Virus record (IMG/VR): IMGVR_UViG_3300042140_000185
Location: 1-44,169 of that record
Reading direction: 5' to 3' (one strand)
DNA length: 44,169 nucleotides
Source: a virus
Taxonomy: Duplodnaviria > Caudoviricetes
Positions 1 to 19,828 of this stretch are shown here, piece by piece (position 1 is the stretch's first letter; the number at the start of each line of letters is the position of its first letter). Under the pieces are notes generated by a model. That model was given only the letters and a program-made list of their open reading frames with translations. It was not told the DNA's origin and ran no database searches. Position numbers and translations under genes: made by a program.

Positions 1-214
1 GCCTGTTGATTTCCTTGCTCGCCAACTCCGCAGATTCGCAAGCCGCCTTCCAGTCCGCAGCCTTCTCGGCCTCGCACCCGGCAAGCGCGGTCCGGTACTC
101 GTCTATGGTAGGAGAGCCGCTCACAATAAGCCTCGCGTTAGGGTTGCAGCCGCGAGAACCAGCGGATGCAGGAGACATCGCCTTGCCGTCCTGCGGTGTA
201 GTTTCGTCACTCAT
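1..214 (-). CDS. Hypothetical cassette protein, runs off window (MSDETTPQDGKAMSPASAGS...)
   Basis: ATG at 214 with AGGAG RBS, both inside attC-like site 1; frame open to position 1; not in ORF track. Confidence 0.7.
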   Translation of the reverse strand, partial: MSDETTPQDGKAMSPASAGSRGCNPNARLIVSGSPTIDEYRTALAGCEAEKAADWKAACESAELASKEINR

Positions 215-242
215 GCGATGCTCCTGATCCTGCGTGTTCTCA
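153..242 (+). mobile_element. attC-like recombination site 1
   Basis: CGAGAAC-N5-GAT[G]CAGGAG[A]CATCGC...GCGATGCTCCTGATC-N6-GTTCTCA; imperfect palindrome with two extra bases; 90 bp. Confidence 0.85.
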
Positions 243-446
243 CTGCACCGTTTCGCGGATAGCCTGCGGGCTATCAGTTTCGCGTTTCGCGAAAGGCCGC
301 AACCTCTCAAGCAGGCTGGAGATATGCGGCCCGTCGCGCAAGGCAACGACACCCACAGCGGCAACGTATTCCAGTGCGTCAAACTCGGCTTCGGTGATGT
401 TCATTCCATGTTCCAGAACGCGATCCCGCCGGGATCGCTGTGTCAT
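240..446 (-). CDS. Hypothetical cassette protein (start 446 or 404)
   Basis: 3' part of ORF 240..653; stop TGA lies in the R' box of attC 1. Confidence 0.55.
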   Translation of the reverse strand: MTQRSRRDRVLEHGMNITEAEFDALEYVAAVGVVALRDGPHISSLLERLRPFAKRETDSPQAIRETVQ

Positions 447-464
447 GTTTCGTAGCAAAAAAAC

Positions 465-552
465 TGAGAACCACACGATGCAGCGGACCCGCGATGCCGT
501 CTGCCGGAATTGTAAGTCAGCGGTCGCGGGCCGCTGATCGCTGGCGTTATAC
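465..552 (+). mobile_element. attC-like recombination site 2
   Basis: TGAGAAC-N5-GAT[G]CAGCGG[A]CCCGCGA...TCGCGGGCCGCTGATC-N6-GTTATAC; 88 bp. Confidence 0.85.
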
Positions 553-846
553 CTTGTTGCGGCAGCACCCATCGCAGCCGTGAATGTTTCTGTAGCCTTG
601 TCCAAGCCTCTGCCAGTACGCCGCGTCATCTGGGTCTGGATGCCCGACGCCATGCTCGCAGATTCGCTCCATCTGGCCCTTGTCGGCCCGCCACCGCATC
701 GGCCACTCTCTCATGTGGTGATCCGATGGATTGTGGATGCAGCAGTATTCGCCAGCGCATTTCGTTGCGTCATGCGTCACAAGGTTTGCGGGCGGTTTGG
801 CAGAACCAGCCGATGCAACGGACGGCCCTGCTACGTCATGCGTCAT
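547..846 (-). CDS. Cys/His-rich putative metal-binding phage protein (cassette gene)
   Basis: CCIHNPSDHH...RICEHGVGHPDPD...HGCDGCC; ATG inside attC 3; stop TAA in the R' box of attC 2. Confidence 0.75.
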   Translation of the reverse strand: MTHDVAGPSVASAGSAKPPANLVTHDATKCAGEYCCIHNPSDHHMREWPMRWRADKGQMERICEHGVGHPDPDDAAYWQRLGQGYRNIHGCDGCCRNKV

Positions 847-888
847 GGTGAGTCCTGCGGTGGCCGCCGTTGATCTTCCGTGTTCTGG
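800..888 (+). mobile_element. attC-like recombination site 3
   Basis: GCAGAAC-N5-GAT[G]CAACGG[A]CGGCC...GGCCGCCGTTGATC-N6-GTTCTGG; 89 bp. Confidence 0.85.
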
Positions 889-1267
889 AATCTGGAAAAT
901 GCCCCCGCCCACCCGCCGCCAGGGCGTTGTCGGCCTGCGGTGCGTCTGGGGGCTCGCCTCCACCGCACTCGCTGGCCGGTGACTGCCGCTCTGCGCTGCG
1001 GTTTATCTGTCCGCCGCTGGAGCCGGGTGGTGGCGTTACGCCGCCAGCCGTAGTCCGCGAGGGCACAATCTGGCTGGCGTCATGTTTCATATTGGAAACT
1101 CCAAGTTTTTCGTCGTTTTCCTCATATGATCTGGCTCGCTCGCGGAGCATGGCGTCGGCGGCCTCGTAGGCAAACCGCGACCAGTAGTCCCACGAGCGGT
1201 CCTTGTCGGTCGGCGCGGCCAGCAGCCCAGTCAAAGCCGCAGCGGCGAAGTGGTCGCGGTCTGTCAT
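836..1267 (-). CDS. Conserved phage hypothetical (RDxFAAxAxxGLLA...AYxxADAML type) with low-complexity tail
   Basis: MTDRDHFAAAALTGLLA...AYEAADAML; ATGA overlap with the upstream gene. Confidence 0.65.
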   Translation of the reverse strand: MTDRDHFAAAALTGLLAAPTDKDRSWDYWSRFAYEAADAMLRERARSYEENDEKLGVSNMKHDASQIVPSRTTAGGVTPPPGSSGGQINRSAERQSPASECGGGEPPDAPQADNALAAGGRGHFPDSRTRKINGGHRRTHHDA

Positions 1268-1491
1268 TTCTCGCTCCCTCTCAAGATCGCCCCGCACGGT
1301 TCCAGCAGCGACAGCCTCATGTTGTCGGAGTGCTCGGCGAACGCCATCGTTTGGCGAATCCAATAGTTTCGCTCGGCCCTGAGCCGCTCGATCTCTGTCG
1401 CCGCGTCGTGGCAGTCCCAGTAGTGCTGCTCGTCGTCGGTGCCGATCATGTCAGCGCGGGTCTGACGCAGTCTGGTGGCAATGTCGCTCAC
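1264..1491 (-). CDS. Small phage hypothetical (SDIATRLR...EIERLR type)
   Basis: GTG start, GGAGGAGG RBS, GTGA overlap. Confidence 0.6.
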   Translation of the reverse strand: MSDIATRLRQTRADMIGTDDEQHYWDCHDAATEIERLRAERNYWIRQTMAFAEHSDNMRLSLLEPCGAILRGSEK

Positions 1492-1703
1492 CCCTCCTCC
1501 ACATACCGCGTCGTGAACTTCGCTAGCTCCTTCGAGAACGCCTGAATCGACTCCGACAGCATGAACGTCGCCAGCGCCAGGCCGTCGGCACCCGCCTCCT
1601 GCGCAAGGGCCGCATTCGCTTCGGCCAGGTCGGCGACCGTCCGAAGCGTCGATGTCATCACGAGGAGCCGCCGCAGGATGTCCGCACGCTCGTCTGGCGT
1701 CAT
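1488..1703 (-). CDS. Small helical hypothetical protein
   Basis: MTPDERADILRRL...; 4-nt overlaps at both ends. Confidence 0.55.
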   Translation of the reverse strand: MTPDERADILRRLLVMTSTLRTVADLAEANAALAQEAGADGLALATFMLSESIQAFSKELAKFTTRYVEEG

Positions 1704-2263
1704 GCTTGCTGCCATTTGCCATGGGCGTCCTTCTCGAGGAGTGTCGGCCAGAATCCAGCACGCGAGGCCACCAGCAGCATGTGCGGGTGGAAGACTGCGA
1801 CCGTGCCGCCGTTCTCGTGCAGCACGCTGGCCTTGAGGCCCGAGGCCGCGTAGGCTGCGACGCCGCGGAGCCGGTAGTCCTTTCGCACGAACGCCTTCAG
1901 CGTGTCGTGGTCGCACCATTTCTCCGTCCTCGCCCACCCGACGATCTCGGCCTTGTCGAGCTTCTCGAGCTTCTCGAGCTTCTCGACGATGGCCTCAAGT
2001 TCGTCGGCGATGCGGTCGATCGCGTCGCTCCGTGGCTTGTCTGACGCGACTCGCTCCGGCTGCGACTGCCTCTCTTGCAGAAGGCTCTCAGCCTGCTCTT
2101 TGTTGACGAGCCATCGACCGCTCGTTGAGTGCTGGAAGCCGTCAACATCGCCGTCAGCGATCGCCTGCCGGAGAAGTTTGTACTGCGGCGAGTGCGCCGC
2201 TTTTTTGTCCCTCTGTGGGTAGTCGTAATCCGCGAGACTGACATAACCCGGTATCGTCGTCAC
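1700..2263 (-). CDS. Hypothetical protein, possible excisionase-like N-terminus plus short coiled coil
   Basis: GTG start, GGAGG RBS; LRQAIADGDVDG...GRWLV; LEKLEKLDK encoded by a 9-nt tandem repeat at 1956-1986. Confidence 0.6.
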   Translation of the reverse strand: MTTIPGYVSLADYDYPQRDKKAAHSPQYKLLRQAIADGDVDGFQHSTSGRWLVNKEQAESLLQERQSQPERVASDKPRSDAIDRIADELEAIVEKLEKLEKLDKAEIVGWARTEKWCDHDTLKAFVRKDYRLRGVAAYAASGLKASVLHENGGTVAVFHPHMLLVASRAGFWPTLLEKDAHGKWQQA

Positions 2264-2460
2264 TGCTTCACCTCCCATGTGTAAACCGCTTCCCTGCCGC
2301 CATTTCGATAGCCAGTGACCCGATACAGACCGCCACGCATCGGCCAAAACACCTTGACCTGATCTTGCGTCATCGAGCACCACTGGAGGCCGTCGATCGG
2401 CCCGCCGATGAATATCGGCGTCACGAAGTAGGCTGGTTGTGTGGTCGCGTCGCTACTCAT
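2260..2460 (-). CDS. Small hypothetical protein with GGPxDG motif
   Basis: FIGGPIDG; coupled to neighbours. Confidence 0.6.
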   Translation of the reverse strand: MSSDATTQPAYFVTPIFIGGPIDGLQWCSMTQDQVKVFWPMRGGLYRVTGYRNGGREAVYTWEVKQ

Positions 2461-2560
2461 CGCGCATCATGTACGGAATAAGGCTCGCATAGAAGCAGCC
2501 GCCAACGATCACGAGGAGCGTGGCGATGTTCAGCCAAGCGTGGATCGCGCTGTCGATCAC
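2453..2560 (-). CDS. 35-aa single-pass membrane peptide
   Basis: GTG overlaps csrA stop; GGAGG RBS; hydrophobic WLNIATLLVIVGGCFYASLI. Confidence 0.55.
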   Translation of the reverse strand: MIDSAIHAWLNIATLLVIVGGCFYASLIPYMMRDE

Positions 2561-2721
2561 TTCGCCACCTCCTTGGGCTGAAGCTCCGTCCTGACGATCG
2601 GCACGTCCGGCGGCGCCTTGATGGCAAGCCGGACGTTTCCGTCGATGATCCGCGTGACCATGACCTCGATGTCTTGGCCGATGCGGATTTTTTCGCCACG
2701 GCGGCGTGTGAGGACGAGCAT
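2557..2721 (-). CDS. csrA: Carbon storage regulator CsrA/RsmA (54 aa)
   Basis: Hand translation MLVLTRRRGEKIRIGQDIEVMVTRIIDGNVRLAIKAPPDVPIVRTELQPKEVAK; AAGGAG RBS; below ORF-track cutoff. Confidence 0.95.
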   Translation of the reverse strand: MLVLTRRRGEKIRIGQDIEVMVTRIIDGNVRLAIKAPPDVPIVRTELQPKEVAK

Positions 2722-2736
2722 GGATGCTGACTCCTT

Positions 2737-2898
2737 TCAGCCTTGGTAATACCGCTTCCTCAGATGCTTCTCTTCGGCAGTCCACTGCCGCTGGAGCTTC
2801 TTGCACTCGATGCGAATCGTGATCGGCGTCGGGTCCGGCGCCCGCTTCGCAAGCCCGCCGCGCTGGCCGAGGTTTTCTTTGAGGCTCATGGAATCCAT
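2737..2898 (-). CDS. Small basic hypothetical protein (start 2898 or 2889)
   Basis: Fills the gap in a - strand operon. Confidence 0.5.
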   Translation of the reverse strand: MDSMSLKENLGQRGGLAKRAPDPTPITIRIECKKLQRQWTAEEKHLRKRYYQG

Positions 2899-2920
2899 TC
2901 CAGTTGTGGTGTCGCGTAGC

Positions 2921-3409
2921 CTAGCCGCCAGTCTGTTTCGACGCAAGCCAAGATTTCGCGGCTTCGCGGACGGCCTCTAGCCCGCATTTATCCGCGGCCC
3001 AGCGGATGTAGTCGATCCTGCCAGCCTCGGCGACCTCGTCGAGCGTCATCCCGACGAACGTATCGCGAACCCCTTGCGGGAGCCGAAAGACATCTTCCTC
3101 CACGACTACTGGCTCGTCTTCCTGCTTGACAGCATCGACCCACTGCCCTGTCCCGCAAAAACAGCACTCGATGTACCAGCGGCCCCTGTCCTCCGACCAG
3201 ATGTCGTGGCATTCGGCCTGGCATCGCTCGTCAAGGCACTTGTAGGTGTGGTCGATCGTCCCAAGGGCTTTCGGAACCTGCGTTGACGACGCCCTCGGGC
3301 GGTGCGTGAAAACTGGCTCATCGACGACAGCCTTGGTGACAAAGCGGCGGCTTTTGCCCTTCGCTCTCCGCGGGTCGTCGGTCGGCGAGATGTCGAAAAG
3401 AAGGCTCAT
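2921..3409 (-). CDS. Hypothetical protein with Zn-ribbon-like Cys pairs and DUF3820-like C-terminus
   Basis: CLDERC...CCFC; FVGMTLDEV...DYIRWAA. Confidence 0.6.
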   Translation of the reverse strand: MSLLFDISPTDDPRRAKGKSRRFVTKAVVDEPVFTHRPRASSTQVPKALGTIDHTYKCLDERCQAECHDIWSEDRGRWYIECCFCGTGQWVDAVKQEDEPVVVEEDVFRLPQGVRDTFVGMTLDEVAEAGRIDYIRWAADKCGLEAVREAAKSWLASKQTGG

Positions 3410-5055
3410 AGCGGCAGCCTCATCTTGTAGTCGGCGCCTTGCTCGGTGGCGATGATCAACTTCCGGCGAGCCCGCGTGACTCCGACGTACTCAATCCGCC
3501 GCTCCTCGTCGTGCTGGCCCGCGTCGATCCCCTGGGCCTCGTGGATGCGGCGGCTGATCGTCGTGGAAAGCACGACCGTGTCTGCCTCCATCCCCTTGGC
3601 AGCATGGATCGTTCCGACCCTAATAGCGGGTCGTGACGCCAATTCTGGGCCGTACTTCTCCGCGGCCCGACGCCACCTGGCTGCCCCGTGGAAAAGTTCG
3701 CCCCAAGCCCCTTTTCGCAGCTTGTCGGCGAACTCTGGCTTCATCCCTGTGTCCTCAAGGTCGGCAGGGAATATGACCTCCCACCGCTGGAGCGTATCCT
3801 CTCGGCCCCATGCTGCCTTCGTTCCCTTGACCATGTTTCCTGTCGCCGGCAGCAAATCCACCGCAGCCGCGAAATCGTCGGAAGCTGCTGGATTGCCGTG
3901 CTCGATGTCCCACAGGGCATTTGCCGCCCGCAGGAACTTCGTGTTGTCCTTGGCCTTGAGTTTTGCGAACGGCAGCCGCTTCTTCGCCAGCACCGCCTCC
4001 CATAACTCCGCTGTGTAGTTGCAGCGGGCGACTATGAGCGTCTGGTCGGTGGCCGACAAGCCGGCTGCGACTGTCTCGGCGTACCCTCCGCGAATGACCT
4101 CGCCAGAATGGTCGGCTGGCGCGATCCCCCTGTCCCAGTAGCCCTCTCGCATCCTCTTCAGGCAGGCTTCGCCAAGATCAAGCACCGGAGCCGGGCATCG
4201 CCAGGTTTTCGGCATGATCCGCTGCTTGTCGGCCTTCCAGGACATGAATAGGCGGGCATCGGAACCGCCGAAGCCAAAAATGCTTTGCATGGGGTCGCCG
4301 GCCAGGTACACCCATTTCACGTTTTCGCCGCTCGCCAGCCGCCGGCAGCACACATCGACCAGCGGCGAGGCGTCCTGCTGCTCGTCCATGACCCATGCCC
4401 GCACGTTTGGCGGCAACTCGCCCTCCGGGTCGGTTTCCTCGAACCCCTCCGGCATGAACCGAATTCCTCCGAACCGTGCCAAGAGGTCCGTGAAGTCGCA
4501 GCGGCACTCAAGCCGCTTCGCGGCCTCGTACTTCTCAATGTACTGCTTGCAAGCCGCGTAGGATGGCACAGAATCGCCCAGGCGGGCCGCTCGCAATATG
4601 GTGGCCTCCAATGGCTCCATTCTTGATCTGGCCTGCTCCCAGGCGTTCAGGGCCGCCGCGGCGGCCTTCTCGCCAGTAAAACGCGCGTACCCGCTGTCTT
4701 CGTCAATGATCGTCCTGACGTTGACGCCGAGGACTTTCGCGATCCACTCGGCGGAAGCCTTGCTGTCGTCAAGCAGGTCGCCCTTTCTGACGCCCAACTG
4801 CCGGTAGGCAATCGAGTGGACGGTCTTGAACCAACCATCTTTCGCCAGCACGTCCGGCGGCACGTTCCAGTTGCCGCTGGCCCGATCGACGGCCTCGGCA
4901 CGAGCGGCGCGGGTGAAACTCGTGAAGCCAATCGAAAACGGGCTCCCGCCTAGCTGTTTTTTTGCGGTATCAATCACGCCCATCAATTCCGTCGTCTTCC
5001 CAGTGCCGGCACCGCCGACCAACCGTGCTATCTGTGCTGCCATTGTTTTGACCAT
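3406..5055 (-). CDS. UvrD/Rep-like SF1 helicase (start 5055 or 5043)
   Basis: GGAGTGKT, DEQQD, GDPMQSIFGF, TIHAAKGMEAD, YVGVTRAR. Confidence 0.92.
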   Translation of the reverse strand: MVKTMAAQIARLVGGAGTGKTTELMGVIDTAKKQLGGSPFSIGFTSFTRAARAEAVDRASGNWNVPPDVLAKDGWFKTVHSIAYRQLGVRKGDLLDDSKASAEWIAKVLGVNVRTIIDEDSGYARFTGEKAAAAALNAWEQARSRMEPLEATILRAARLGDSVPSYAACKQYIEKYEAAKRLECRCDFTDLLARFGGIRFMPEGFEETDPEGELPPNVRAWVMDEQQDASPLVDVCCRRLASGENVKWVYLAGDPMQSIFGFGGSDARLFMSWKADKQRIMPKTWRCPAPVLDLGEACLKRMREGYWDRGIAPADHSGEVIRGGYAETVAAGLSATDQTLIVARCNYTAELWEAVLAKKRLPFAKLKAKDNTKFLRAANALWDIEHGNPAASDDFAAAVDLLPATGNMVKGTKAAWGREDTLQRWEVIFPADLEDTGMKPEFADKLRKGAWGELFHGAARWRRAAEKYGPELASRPAIRVGTIHAAKGMEADTVVLSTTISRRIHEAQGIDAGQHDEERRIEYVGVTRARRKLIIATEQGADYKMRLPL

Positions 5056-16564: not shown

Positions 16565-19500
16565 CTATGTCAAAGCCGCAGCCGGAACGGAATAGCTGCC
16601 GGTGCCGTAGAGCGCCGTCGAACTGATCCGAATATCATCCATGTAGCCGACAAATTTCCCGCCAATGCCTGATCCAGACCACTGGTCGGCAAGCGCCTGT
16701 GCGCGGCCAAACTCAATCGCGCCATATTCATACGCGGCCCATGTGCCGCTCGGGATCGCCAGAGTCCCGGCCTCACTGCCGTCAATTTTCAATCGCAATA
16801 CGCCGTTCGCCGGATCGCACACAACGGCGAGGTGATGCCACGCATTCCGCGAGAGGCTTGGCACGGTGAGCCGCGCTGAAACGCCGTTTGTGAACAGTTC
16901 CATCGTTACGCCGCCGCCGGGAATGGCAACGTGCTGATACACCACGCCGTTCTCGTCGTAGGCGTATTGCGGCGTTGAAATCGTGTTGTCGTACACCACC
17001 AACAGGCTGCCGCCGCTACCGCCTTGGATGCTGTTGGCGTTGAGCTGTACTGCAAAATAGGTTTCGCCGTCGTCTGGCGTCCATTCGCCGTAAGCCGTGC
17101 CGGTTGAATACGCTGGCGAGGCCGTCGGACGCAACCACATTTCGACTGTGAACGGCCCGCCGTTAAACACGGCGGCCATGTCGGAAAAATAGGAAGCGTA
17201 TCCGCCGCCCCACTCCGGCCATAGCGTCATGCCCATATACGGCGGGCCATTTCCTGTAAGCCCGAATTGGTACGACGCCTCGCCGAATTTCTTCTCTGCG
17301 CCGCTGATCTTCGGGATATCGCCGGGGAAAAGGTAGGTGTAACTAAGTTTGAGGAAATGCCGGCGGCAGCCCCAATCCTCCAATCCGTGAGCGGCGCGGA
17401 GAAGCAATTCCGTTGTCGGGTTGGTCGGCCGCGTGTACGCGAACGCCGCCGTCGGCACTGTGATCGTTGAGCCGGAGTAAATCGCGCCGGCCGACACGCG
17501 AAAATTGCTGACGAAACTGGACGCCGCCGTATACCACGGTCCTAGACCAAATTCGTCGATTGGCCCAGACGGTGACGCCACGCCCGTGCAGGCGAGAGCG
17601 CCGTTGATGTAGAGGCGGCATTGGTCGTTCGCGTAGTCAACAACGAGCGCGAGGTGATTCCATGCGTTTTCGGTGAGCATGGTCGTGGTGTATGCACGCT
17701 CTGATCCGAAGTTGGCGTATACGTCTGCGTAGACCGCCGTGTAGTTCACAGGCACAGCCCCGTAGGGATTGTTCTCGTCGCTGGCGACAGCCGCGACGGT
17801 GAAGCCGCCGACGGTGAAATACCGCTCGGTGCTGCCTAAATACTGACCGTAGGTCGTCAGGCTGCCAACGCCCGGCTTGTAGAACATCTCAACGGTGAAG
17901 GACGTTGCGTTTACCTGATTGCGGAAATGCCACTGGCCCACCAGCGGTGGCTGCACCGGCTGATAGACCGGATCGTAGTAGTAGCCGTTCGTCCGAATCG
18001 TCGCCGTGAGGAACGGGCCCGAGCCGTATGGTTCTGGGCCAACCTGTAGGCAGTTGCCGCCAAACGGGCCTCCGCCAACGGTGGACGGAATTGCGTAGAA
18101 TCCGCTGATGTCGCCGACACTACCAGAATCGTAGTTACCCTGCGACCCCAACCAGTAGTTATTTGGGCCGTCGTCTACAAACGTGTCACCGTCGAACCGC
18201 GCGAGGAGGATCGGCGGCGTCTCCTCCTCCTCCACGGTGAGCGTGGCGGAATCGCTGGTCACGGGCGTTGCGCCGCCGGTCGCGGACACGATGACGCGAA
18301 CCACCAAACCATCGGCCGACGCCGTAAGCCCGGTGAGCGCAAGGCTCGCGCTCGTCGCGCCTGCAATATCGGAGAACGCCCCCGAAAAAGTCTGCTCCTG
18401 CCACTGATAGGAGAGCGTTGCCCCTTCTGTGACGGTGGCCGTGACGCTAAACGTCGCCGCCCCGCCGACGGCTAGTTGGTTCGTCGGCTGTTGCGTGATC
18501 GTGATGACGGGCGTGGCCGGAGCCTCGACCGTGAGCGTGGCGGCGTTGCTCGTCACAGAGTTTGCGCCGCCAGTTGCCGACACGACGACGCGGTAAACGT
18601 CGCCGTCGTCGGCGGCGTTCGTGAGCGATGAGAGGGCCAGAGATGCGCTAGTTGCGCCGCTGACGTTCGCGAAGTTGCCGGCGCCGCCTTCCTGTTTCTG
18701 CCACTGGTAGGAGAGCGTTGCCCCTTGCGTCACAGTAGCAGCGACCGAAAACGTCGCAGCACCAGACGACGCCGTTTGATTGGTCGGCTGCGAGGTGATC
18801 GTAATGACGGGCGCAGCGTTGACCGTCAGCGTGACCGGATCGCTGGTTACGGGCGTAGCGCCGTTGTCGGACGACACGATGACGCGGTACACGTCTCCGT
18901 TGTCGTCTGCCTCGGTTAGCCCTGTCAGTACGAGACGGCTCCGCAGTCCAACGGGAGCGTTTTCGGTCGTCGCTCCGCTGATATTTACGAACGCGCCTAC
19001 GCCGCCCTCCTGTTTCTGCCACTGGAATGACACGGTTCCAGACAGCGATACAGCGGCATAGACGGAGAAAGTGGCGCTGCCATTTATTGCAGATTGGTTT
19101 GTGGGCCACTCAAGAACCTGAATCCACGGGACGGTAAGCGTAGACAGCATCGAATACGCATTGTCCGCGCCTCCGGTTGCTGACACGATGCAGCGGTATG
19201 CGTCTCCGTTGTTTTCTTCGTATGTAAGCCCAGTGAGCAAGAGGCTCGCGCTCGTGGCCCCCGGAATTGGAACAAAATTCAGCGATGGGCTTCCGTCCTC
19301 AACGTGTTTCTCCCACTGATATGACAGAGTTGCGCCGTCTGTGACCGCAGCGACGACAGAAAACGTCGCGTTTCCGTTTTGGGAAATTTGGCTTGTAGAG
19401 TCCTGCACGATCGTGATGACTGAGACGCGAGAGCCGTAGAACGGCCACGACCAATCTCCGACGCCGGATGGATTCGCCGCACGCACGCGAATCGTGATGG

Positions 19501-19828
19501 GGACGTTCAGCCCTATCCCATACGGCGGCTCTGTCGCAGTTAGGTAATGCGGAGACTCGTTGCTGCCGACGATCATCGCCGTTCCGTTTTGCAGCGTATA
19601 TTCCACAACGTAGCCAACTATGGTTCCGTTTGGCTCCTCTGGTGGAAGCCACTGTATTCTCAGTGCCGATGTGCCGTCGTTTGGCTGGCCTGGGGCAACA
19701 ACGCTTGACGCCCACACCGCCAGCGGCGCGGATGGACGCGGCGGCCAAACGATGACCGTGCCCAGGTACGCGCGCACGGCGGCGGCGGCACCAACGCGAA
19801 GCGCGGAGACAGCGGGCACAAACTTCAT
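16565..19828 (-). CDS. Large adhesin/tail appendage: FN3, four Ig-like and two LamG/ConA-like domains
   Basis: WLPPEEPNGTIVGYVVEY; four LSYQW...Y/VRVIVS repeats about 300 nt apart; FTVEM...WNHLALV and WHHLAVV...DDIRIS. Confidence 0.85.
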   Translation of the reverse strand: MKFVPAVSALRVGAAAAVRAYLGTVIVWPPRPSAPLAVWASSVVAPGQPNDGTSALRIQWLPPEEPNGTIVGYVVEYTLQNGTAMIVGSNESPHYLTATEPPYGIGLNVPITIRVRAANPSGVGDWSWPFYGSRVSVITIVQDSTSQISQNGNATFSVVAAVTDGATLSYQWEKHVEDGSPSLNFVPIPGATSASLLLTGLTYEENNGDAYRCIVSATGGADNAYSMLSTLTVPWIQVLEWPTNQSAINGSATFSVYAAVSLSGTVSFQWQKQEGGVGAFVNISGATTENAPVGLRSRLVLTGLTEADDNGDVYRVIVSSDNGATPVTSDPVTLTVNAAPVITITSQPTNQTASSGAATFSVAATVTQGATLSYQWQKQEGGAGNFANVSGATSASLALSSLTNAADDGDVYRVVVSATGGANSVTSNAATLTVEAPATPVITITQQPTNQLAVGGAATFSVTATVTEGATLSYQWQEQTFSGAFSDIAGATSASLALTGLTASADGLVVRVIVSATGGATPVTSDSATLTVEEEETPPILLARFDGDTFVDDGPNNYWLGSQGNYDSGSVGDISGFYAIPSTVGGGPFGGNCLQVGPEPYGSGPFLTATIRTNGYYYDPVYQPVQPPLVGQWHFRNQVNATSFTVEMFYKPGVGSLTTYGQYLGSTERYFTVGGFTVAAVASDENNPYGAVPVNYTAVYADVYANFGSERAYTTTMLTENAWNHLALVVDYANDQCRLYINGALACTGVASPSGPIDEFGLGPWYTAASSFVSNFRVSAGAIYSGSTITVPTAAFAYTRPTNPTTELLLRAAHGLEDWGCRRHFLKLSYTYLFPGDIPKISGAEKKFGEASYQFGLTGNGPPYMGMTLWPEWGGGYASYFSDMAAVFNGGPFTVEMWLRPTASPAYSTGTAYGEWTPDDGETYFAVQLNANSIQGGSGGSLLVVYDNTISTPQYAYDENGVVYQHVAIPGGGVTMELFTNGVSARLTVPSLSRNAWHHLAVVCDPANGVLRLKIDGSEAGTLAIPSGTWAAYEYGAIEFGRAQALADQWSGSGIGGKFVGYMDDIRISSTALYGTGSYSVPAAALT

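Follow-up and report, generated by a model that had tools for sequence, protein, structure and literature searches.

A probable integrase-less phage integron whose reversed gene cassettes may be shuffled by a host integrase

The window analysed here, a whole virus contig of 44,169 bases with an estimated completeness of 78%, carries three attC-type recombination sites and their cassettes at its left end. Probably, this region is the distal end of a phage integron that lacks an integrase of its own and is shuffled at the G^TT crossover point by the IntI of its host, likely a planctomycete. To judge from its sequence, the array acts in an integron-like manner; with more than one attC site side by side and intI missing, it qualifies as a CALIN and not as a complete integron.

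In the mechanism that we propose, the folded bottom strand would be the recombination substrate, and the integron integrase of the host would excise and insert cassettes at G^TT. The moving unit would consist of the gene end at R', the gene, R'' and the hairpin body, so that each hairpin would travel with the gene it starts. The array would be transcribed towards attI as part of a phage minus-strand operon, with translation starting at an SD-like motif and ATG inside the hairpin, and attI, at the far end of the transcript, would be the entry point for new cassettes. A rarer exchange at R'' would swap hairpin bodies together with the translation start and leave the frame unchanged.

Three attC-type sites in a tailed phage contig

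The contig has the gene content of a tailed phage (capsid, portal, terminase, helicase, primase and a CsrA-like protein), and the minus strand carries nearly all of its genes. Its DNA is contained in freshwater metagenome runs; 6% of its words were present in a single RNA run. The CsrA-family protein (PF02599) is encoded at 2557-2721 on the minus strand, upstream of the array in the shared reading direction. A large tail-region protein (16565-19828, minus strand) has repeats of ~98 residues, spaced by 294-309 bases, together with fn3 and Laminin G domains. The 58-base direct repeat at the right end of the contig (44036-44169; 95% identical) is possibly an assembly end effect.

An earlier note on this DNA had described three sites of attC architecture, each with two unpaired bases at identical positions and with stem hexamers that differ by compensatory changes, and all of these features were recovered. 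Site 1 spans 153-242 on the top (plus) strand, with the R'' AAC at 157-159, unpaired bases at 168 and 175, and the R' G^TT at 236-238. Site 2, in the same orientation, spans 465-552 (AAC 469-471; unpaired bases 480 and 487; G^TT 546-548), as does the likewise co-oriented site 3 at 800-888 (AAC 804-806; unpaired bases 815 and 822; G^TT 882-884). The AAC..GTT spans are 157-238, 469-548 and 804-884. In each site, inverted R'' (AAC) and R' (GTT) cores flank paired L'' and L' arms, a central spacer of 5 and 6 bases is unpaired, and two extrahelical bases, G and A, project from the left, R''-L'' arm; on the bottom strand the second of these is a T, 6-8 bases from the first. These are defining traits of attC. 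Since the bulges lie on the left arm of the plus strand, plus is the top and minus the recombinogenic bottom strand under the definition given in the available text of PMC2727003.

A structural scanner (AAC, 5 bases, 3 pairs, bulge, 6 pairs, bulge, stem, 6 bases, GTT) was run over the full 44,169 bases in both orientations. It returned exactly these three sites, with no match in 100 order-3 Markov controls of equal length. A covariance model was trained on 57 of 58 diverse sites, all from other phage contigs; it scored the three at 76-83 bits and the next best position at 10.3 bits; by this model, the window holds no further degenerate attC site. Folding as DNA gave z-scores of -4.5, -4.2 and -2.3 for the minus strands of sites 1, 2 and 3 and of -4.2, -3.7 and -2.0 for the plus strands, site 3 being the weakest single-stranded fold. 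Scanner, DNA folding and covariance model all support the assignment to attC.

The first extrahelical base of the bottom strand is C in all three window sites and in 244 of 249 phage sites, in place of the usual G, a point against our reading. Bacterial sites of the same attC family also carry C, and a G>C change at this position had a minor, 1.3-fold effect in the portion of PMC2727003 available. Both unpaired bases and both spacers are kept across the family, with compensatory stem changes, the covariation figures resting on sites selected for pairing and hence not being an independent test. An Rfam search gave no relevant family for the sites, and no GenBank phage matched site 3. Mini attC sites of <60 bases, with the loop region deleted, were seen at 18 of 151 cassette sites in attI-anchored arrays (L011, L063, L072, L077, L151 and others).

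How far does this type of site extend? A degenerate pattern derived from the three window sites matched at least 149 viral-contig loci (about 250 estimated), and 148 of these 149 contained scanner-positive sites. Viral arrays held up to 8 sites, and no locus had sites on both strands. The same pattern matched 140 loci in bacterial genomes, with titles mostly of Planctomycetota among the 80 listed, from which 35 planctomycete bins were chosen. By sequence, the window sites are of the same family as the attC sites that adjoin intI in Planctomycetota genomes, with site 2 closest to the host sites (79% to its nearest bacterial match). The phage host is likely a planctomycete. Of 301 genomes from the class to which the bins belong, 12 contain homologues of the window's tyrosine recombinase, at 32-43%, a count with no outgroup control and of little weight for host assignment.

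A host-type attI to the left of the window

The array was expected, in the earlier note, to continue past position 1, and it does so in contig L368, which is identical to window 1-269 at 267 of 269 bases and reaches an attI motif 2,155 bases left of position 1. Two more cassettes lie between attI and the window start, one of them encoding a 549-aa C5 DNA methylase. Unitigs support this extension: in run X12, one 609-base unitig leads from the previous attC to window position 466, and the remaining path to attI consists, in the runs examined, of overlapping unitigs of similar depth, not of a single molecule.

The attI motif is not a hairpin; it ends in GTT, is preceded by short TTATnC-type repeats and marks the left edge of the array, with every attC site to its right in 41 of 46 viral occurrences. 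A like motif is found downstream of intI in planctomycete bins, where, judged by eye, 6 of 7 loci show a match between its R' and the first R'' detected. Searching viral contigs with the motif alone yielded 75 loci (63 distinct), which overlap in part with the set from which the motif was drawn. An attC followed within 1 kb downstream in 37 of the 47 loci that offered 1.5 kb of room, 33 of these 37 with a perfect R match; one was found upstream in 1 of 58 loci, and none on the other strand. Counted by cassette order from attI, perfect R matches came to 51/57, 28/36, 17/25 and 24/33. This mild gradient away from attI fits an entry of cassettes there. The window array is apparently anchored by a host-type attI, identified in another contig by its position and its likeness to host sites.

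Cassette genes on the attC bottom strand

The window contains the right part of cassette 0 (1-236, plus strand), which is cut by the contig end and measures 355 bases in the near-identical contig L368/L074, followed by cassette 1 (237-546, plus strand; 310 bases) and cassette 2 (547-882, plus strand; 336 bases). Their ORFs all lie on the minus strand. That of cassette 0 (2-214) starts within site 1 and has 71 codons in the window and 109 aa in L368. The cassette 1 ORF (240-446; 68 aa, true start uncertain) ends at a TGA within the R' of site 1 (240-242), and the cassette 2 ORF (547-846; 99 aa), whose first ~15 residues are encoded by site 3, ends at a TAA within the R' of site 2 (547-549). On the minus strand, site 1 offers an SD-like AGGAG (225-221) with an ATG at 214, and site 3 an AGGA (856-853) with an ATG at 846; no ATG lies inside site 2. 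The gene upstream of the array in phage reading direction (836-1267, minus strand) reads through the R' of site 3. Compared with L030, 8 bases are missing right of site 3 (883-890), including a TGA stop present in L030; owing to this gap, the upstream gene, with its start at 1267, continues into the hairpin and has an overlap with the start of cassette 2.

None of the three window cassette ORFs had a family match, the search for cassette 0 covering Pfam, NCBIfam and PHROG. A gene related to the cassette 1 ORF is present in L004/L183. The start region of this gene (443-466) also occurs without an adjoining attC in L004 and L029, where the stop of the preceding gene overlaps the ATG. The cassette 2 ORF belongs to a Cys/His-rich family with 1,272 homologues and no Pfam match. 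In all seven more distant phage loci examined, its family members have their own start and no adjacent attC; the gene carries different attC-derived leaders in the window, L150 and L151.

The window cassette genes lie, by ORF content, on the attC bottom strand, opposite to those of bacterial cassettes. The bottom strand holds the longest ATG ORF in 69 of 87 cassettes, and a bottom-strand ORF stops at R' at 184 of the 217 viral sites, compared with 22 of the 212 from bacterial bins. Conversely, a top-strand ORF ends near R'' at 125 of 212 bacterial-bin sites versus 49 of 217 viral ones. Within the hairpin, 195 of 267 viral sites contain an SD-like motif and an ATG whose frame stays open through R'', compared with 15 of 225 bacterial-bin sites; the hairpin ATGs use several positions and share a single phase in 190 of the 195. 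The canonical cassette arrangement, a top-strand ORF that ends before its attC, is not seen here. Top-strand genes were considered as cassette genes and rejected, as Pfam matches and homologues belong to the bottom-strand ORFs.

How might such genes be expressed? They point towards attI, so a Pc at attI could not express them. Neither a sigma-70-type promoter nor a convincing terminator was found in window 1-3500. The mRNA would correspond to the bottom strand and is predicted to fold into the same hairpin. With the ATG near the left arm of the transcript, the predicted SD is mostly paired (mean unpaired 0.1, n=78); with the ATG in the loop, it is mostly free (unpaired 0.7, n=112).

C5 and N6/N4 methylases were recognized in 3 of 6 cargo proteins scanned. 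The interiors of 151 phage cassettes matched just 8 bacterial-bin loci, whose own sites are phage-type in appearance, and the phage and host cassette pools look separate within the sample compared. A small hairpin element with a core like GCTTTATCnGTGCG was seen at 13 places in viral loci near arrays (L004, L016, L018, L029, L073). The window carries its arms without the middle at 418-445 and a variant near 1000 (990-1020).

Cassette turnover at GTT

In a cassette that leaves as a circle, R'' is expected to complement the R' upstream. We analysed 82 distinct cassettes under 1 kb, the two of the window included. In 55 of them, the 4 bases that precede AAC are fully complementary to the 4 that follow the GTT upstream. 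Tested against the site's own R', the count falls to 13; permutation gave a mean of 12.1 and a maximum of 23 in 10,000. Bacterial control arrays gave 62 for the upstream R' versus 8 for their own, again of 82. In the window, the earlier note had pointed out that the R'' of site 2 (TGAGAAC) complements the R' of site 1 (GTTCTCA), which is correct, and had called this the pattern expected if 237-546 is excised as a circle. For cassette 1 this agrees with a full match in the predicted circle (4 of 4 outer bases); for cassette 2 just 2 of 4 match, which counts against our reading.

Because this signature is blind to which core is cut, we compared shared flanks among 291 distinct sites. Comparisons with a shared left flank and different right neighbours had the same hairpin body in 23 of 36 cases, a different one in 11 and an intermediate one in 2. 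With a shared right flank, the body was the same in 1 of 22 (random pairs, 2.6%). Identity in these right-shared comparisons stops within 5 bases of GTT in 19 of 22 and extends 16-22 bases into the body in the other 3. Five or fewer shared bases are too short for homologous exchange or for a k-mer mis-join. In six contigs an identical cassette end leads into six different neighbours, with the divergence beginning 0-7 bases past GTT; the body common to them is nearly that of window site 1. The gene of window cassette 2 has other neighbours in L150-L152. Viral contigs may resample related populations, and these counts are not of independent events. Taken together, the data uphold the idea of gene exchange through attC put forward in the earlier note, with relatives swapping cassettes at G^TT.

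The 11 left-shared pairs with different bodies do not follow from bottom-strand crossover alone and count against our preferred reading. In 12 pairs that share a gene and differ in body, the flank has 0-4 mismatches over its last 30 bases, and in 9 of them the first body mismatch falls at position 6-8, directly after the invariant AACCA; 2 of the 12 break inside the stem. A first mismatch at this point suggests exchange at R'', which would amount to an in-frame swap of start modules.

Sequencing runs were inspected for the corresponding junctions, runs X9 and X10 being counted once on account of their identical tables. The circular junctions 546/237 and 882/547 were absent from 4 runs of assembled contigs, which drop rare forms. 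A joint 466>802, seen in 3 of 4 runs, is an R''-to-R'' skip of 335 bases. It was not counted as an excision in this phage, its sides being 29-39 bases long with 90% likeness; the loose ends seen at 418-424, which point to a related cassette of other phages, also count against it. In run X12 cassette 2 has no cover, but no contig joins across the gap, which is not evidence of its loss.

Which enzyme shuffles the cassettes?

No IntI over the TIGR02249 cut-off was found in the window contig or in 48 related phage records, 12 of which are at least 90% complete (IntI in 0 of 12). The earlier note had considered an IntI encoded by the phage left of the window. Beyond attI, L368 carries ordinary phage-type ORFs, which together with the 0 of 48 relatives speaks against this option. 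Among the 35 planctomycete bins, 23 have an IntI over the same cut-off, and the covariance model built from phage sites detected attC beside intI in 7 of 7 intI loci given to it, at 52-64 bits. The available sections of a review (PMC8946536) give the bottom strand a roughly 1,000-fold advantage over the top strand in recombination and state that phage infection can provide folding conditions and SOS induction. Of 19 host loci parsed, 6 (L325, L329, L331, L336, L337, L339) have a TGTAC-N4-GTACA palindrome upstream of intI, which may be a LexA-type box of planctomycetes; the window does not contain it. In L362, a top-strand gene homologous to the tyrosine recombinase of the window stops 108 bases short of attI, a layout resembling that of host intI.

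Could this phage recombinase (11720-12568, plus strand) itself work the array, as a self-contained system that merely borrowed host sites? We consider this unlikely. Among the records searched, all from array-bearing phages, a PF00589 gene is present in 29 of 49, and none of the 12 near-complete ones lacks it; in both L362 and L406 a homologue is found no more than 1.5 kb from attI. However, its presence would be accounted for by the ordinary role of a temperate-phage integrase, and in the window it is 10.8 kb from the array. Its homologues vary from 22% to 65% identity, whereas the sites stay host-like. From the box I Arg to HxxR it measures 85 residues, compared with 131-133 in host IntI (16 of 20 loci with both motifs parsed), and so lacks the IntI insertion; the protein is not an IntI.

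It is still less probable that the sites are relics of captured host integrons that act as homology patches and translation starts, with exchange by homologous or single-strand-annealing recombination. The hairpin bodies do share about 69% identity on average, and the identity reaching into the body in 3 of 22 right-shared comparisons, like the stem breaks in 2 of the 12 body-different pairs, would suit such a process. The 5 or fewer identical bases before GTT in 19 of 22 would not, and R''/R' complementarity and a kept attI with matching R' would be useless in homologous exchange; nor would it call for both unpaired bases and both spacers to be retained while stems change compensatorily. Lowest of all we rate an assembly artefact, in which contigs were mis-joined at 80-base repeats. 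Unitigs do break at the sites, where depth piles up, and left-shared pairs with identical bodies could include mis-joins; yet right-shared pairs switch body with 0-5 bases in common in those same 19 of 22, too few for a k-mer join, and the complementarity signature is independent of whether neighbours differ. All 4 of the runs examined cover window 1-2500, apart from cassette 2 in one of them. Shuffling at G^TT by a host IntI remains the reading that we prefer.

Discussion

Phage attC clusters have previously been regarded as rare passengers. Here, a freshwater phage group appears to keep an attI and a cassette pool of its own, which turns over at the integron crossover point. If this is true, a phage varies its accessory genes with the adaptation enzyme of its host, including DNA methyltransferases that could counter restriction. 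Pipelines that seek top-strand ORFs with little attC overlap, as in the available text of PMC7370490, would overlook such cassettes. The reversed layout also breaks the rule by which attC strand choice orients a gene under Pc.

Where do gene cassettes come from? A test case is provided by a gene that occurs in some phages as a plain gene and in others as a cassette led by attC. The R'' breakpoints, together with the plain-gene homologues, would allow cassettes to be born from ordinary phage genes. More tentatively, the attC hairpin may be an interchangeable, frame-locked start module that R'' exchange fuses onto phage genes, with host IntI shuffling at attI; we see this as possible, with the odds against it. 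If true, such fusion would be a visible route for the birth of a gene cassette.

How do these arrays compare with known systems? Phage attC clusters are already published: the available part of Qi et al. 2023 (PMC9892861) reports 17 CALINs among 10,705 phage genomes and shows that, of 6 phage attC sites put to the test, 5 were recombined by IntI1. What appears new is the reversed, attI-anchored layout, of which we found no report in the literature searched, most subscription papers lying outside its coverage. Like the CALINs of Qi et al., the present arrays are attC clusters without intI and with DNA methyltransferase cargo. No planctomycete phage is listed among those CALINs ('planctomyc' has 0 matches in the supplement, as far as available). 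In TJE1, the sole example compared, ORFs lie on the attC top strand, with polarity read by eye, unlike the bottom-strand genes of the window that start inside attC. The arrays described here further differ from the CALINs in that source by their attI and by GTT turnover across many contigs.

The chromosomal integrons of Planctomycetota (Pirellulales) share with the phage arrays an attC family of ~81 bases, the attI motif and the R''/R' signature. They possess an intI co-oriented with the array, which the phage arrays lack, and their cassettes carry top-strand genes ending near R'', unlike those of the phages. As for attC-internal reading frames, the available text of a review (PMC8876359) mentions short ORFs that aid downstream cassettes on the same strand, and nothing else of the kind is described there. 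With canonical attC sites (Bouvier et al. 2009, PMC2727003, in the portion available), the window sites have in common the R and L boxes, an unpaired central spacer, a variable terminal structure and two extrahelical bases on the R''-L'' arm. They depart from them in the first extrahelical base of the bottom strand, C and not G, and in that the site doubles as the predicted translation start of an antisense gene.
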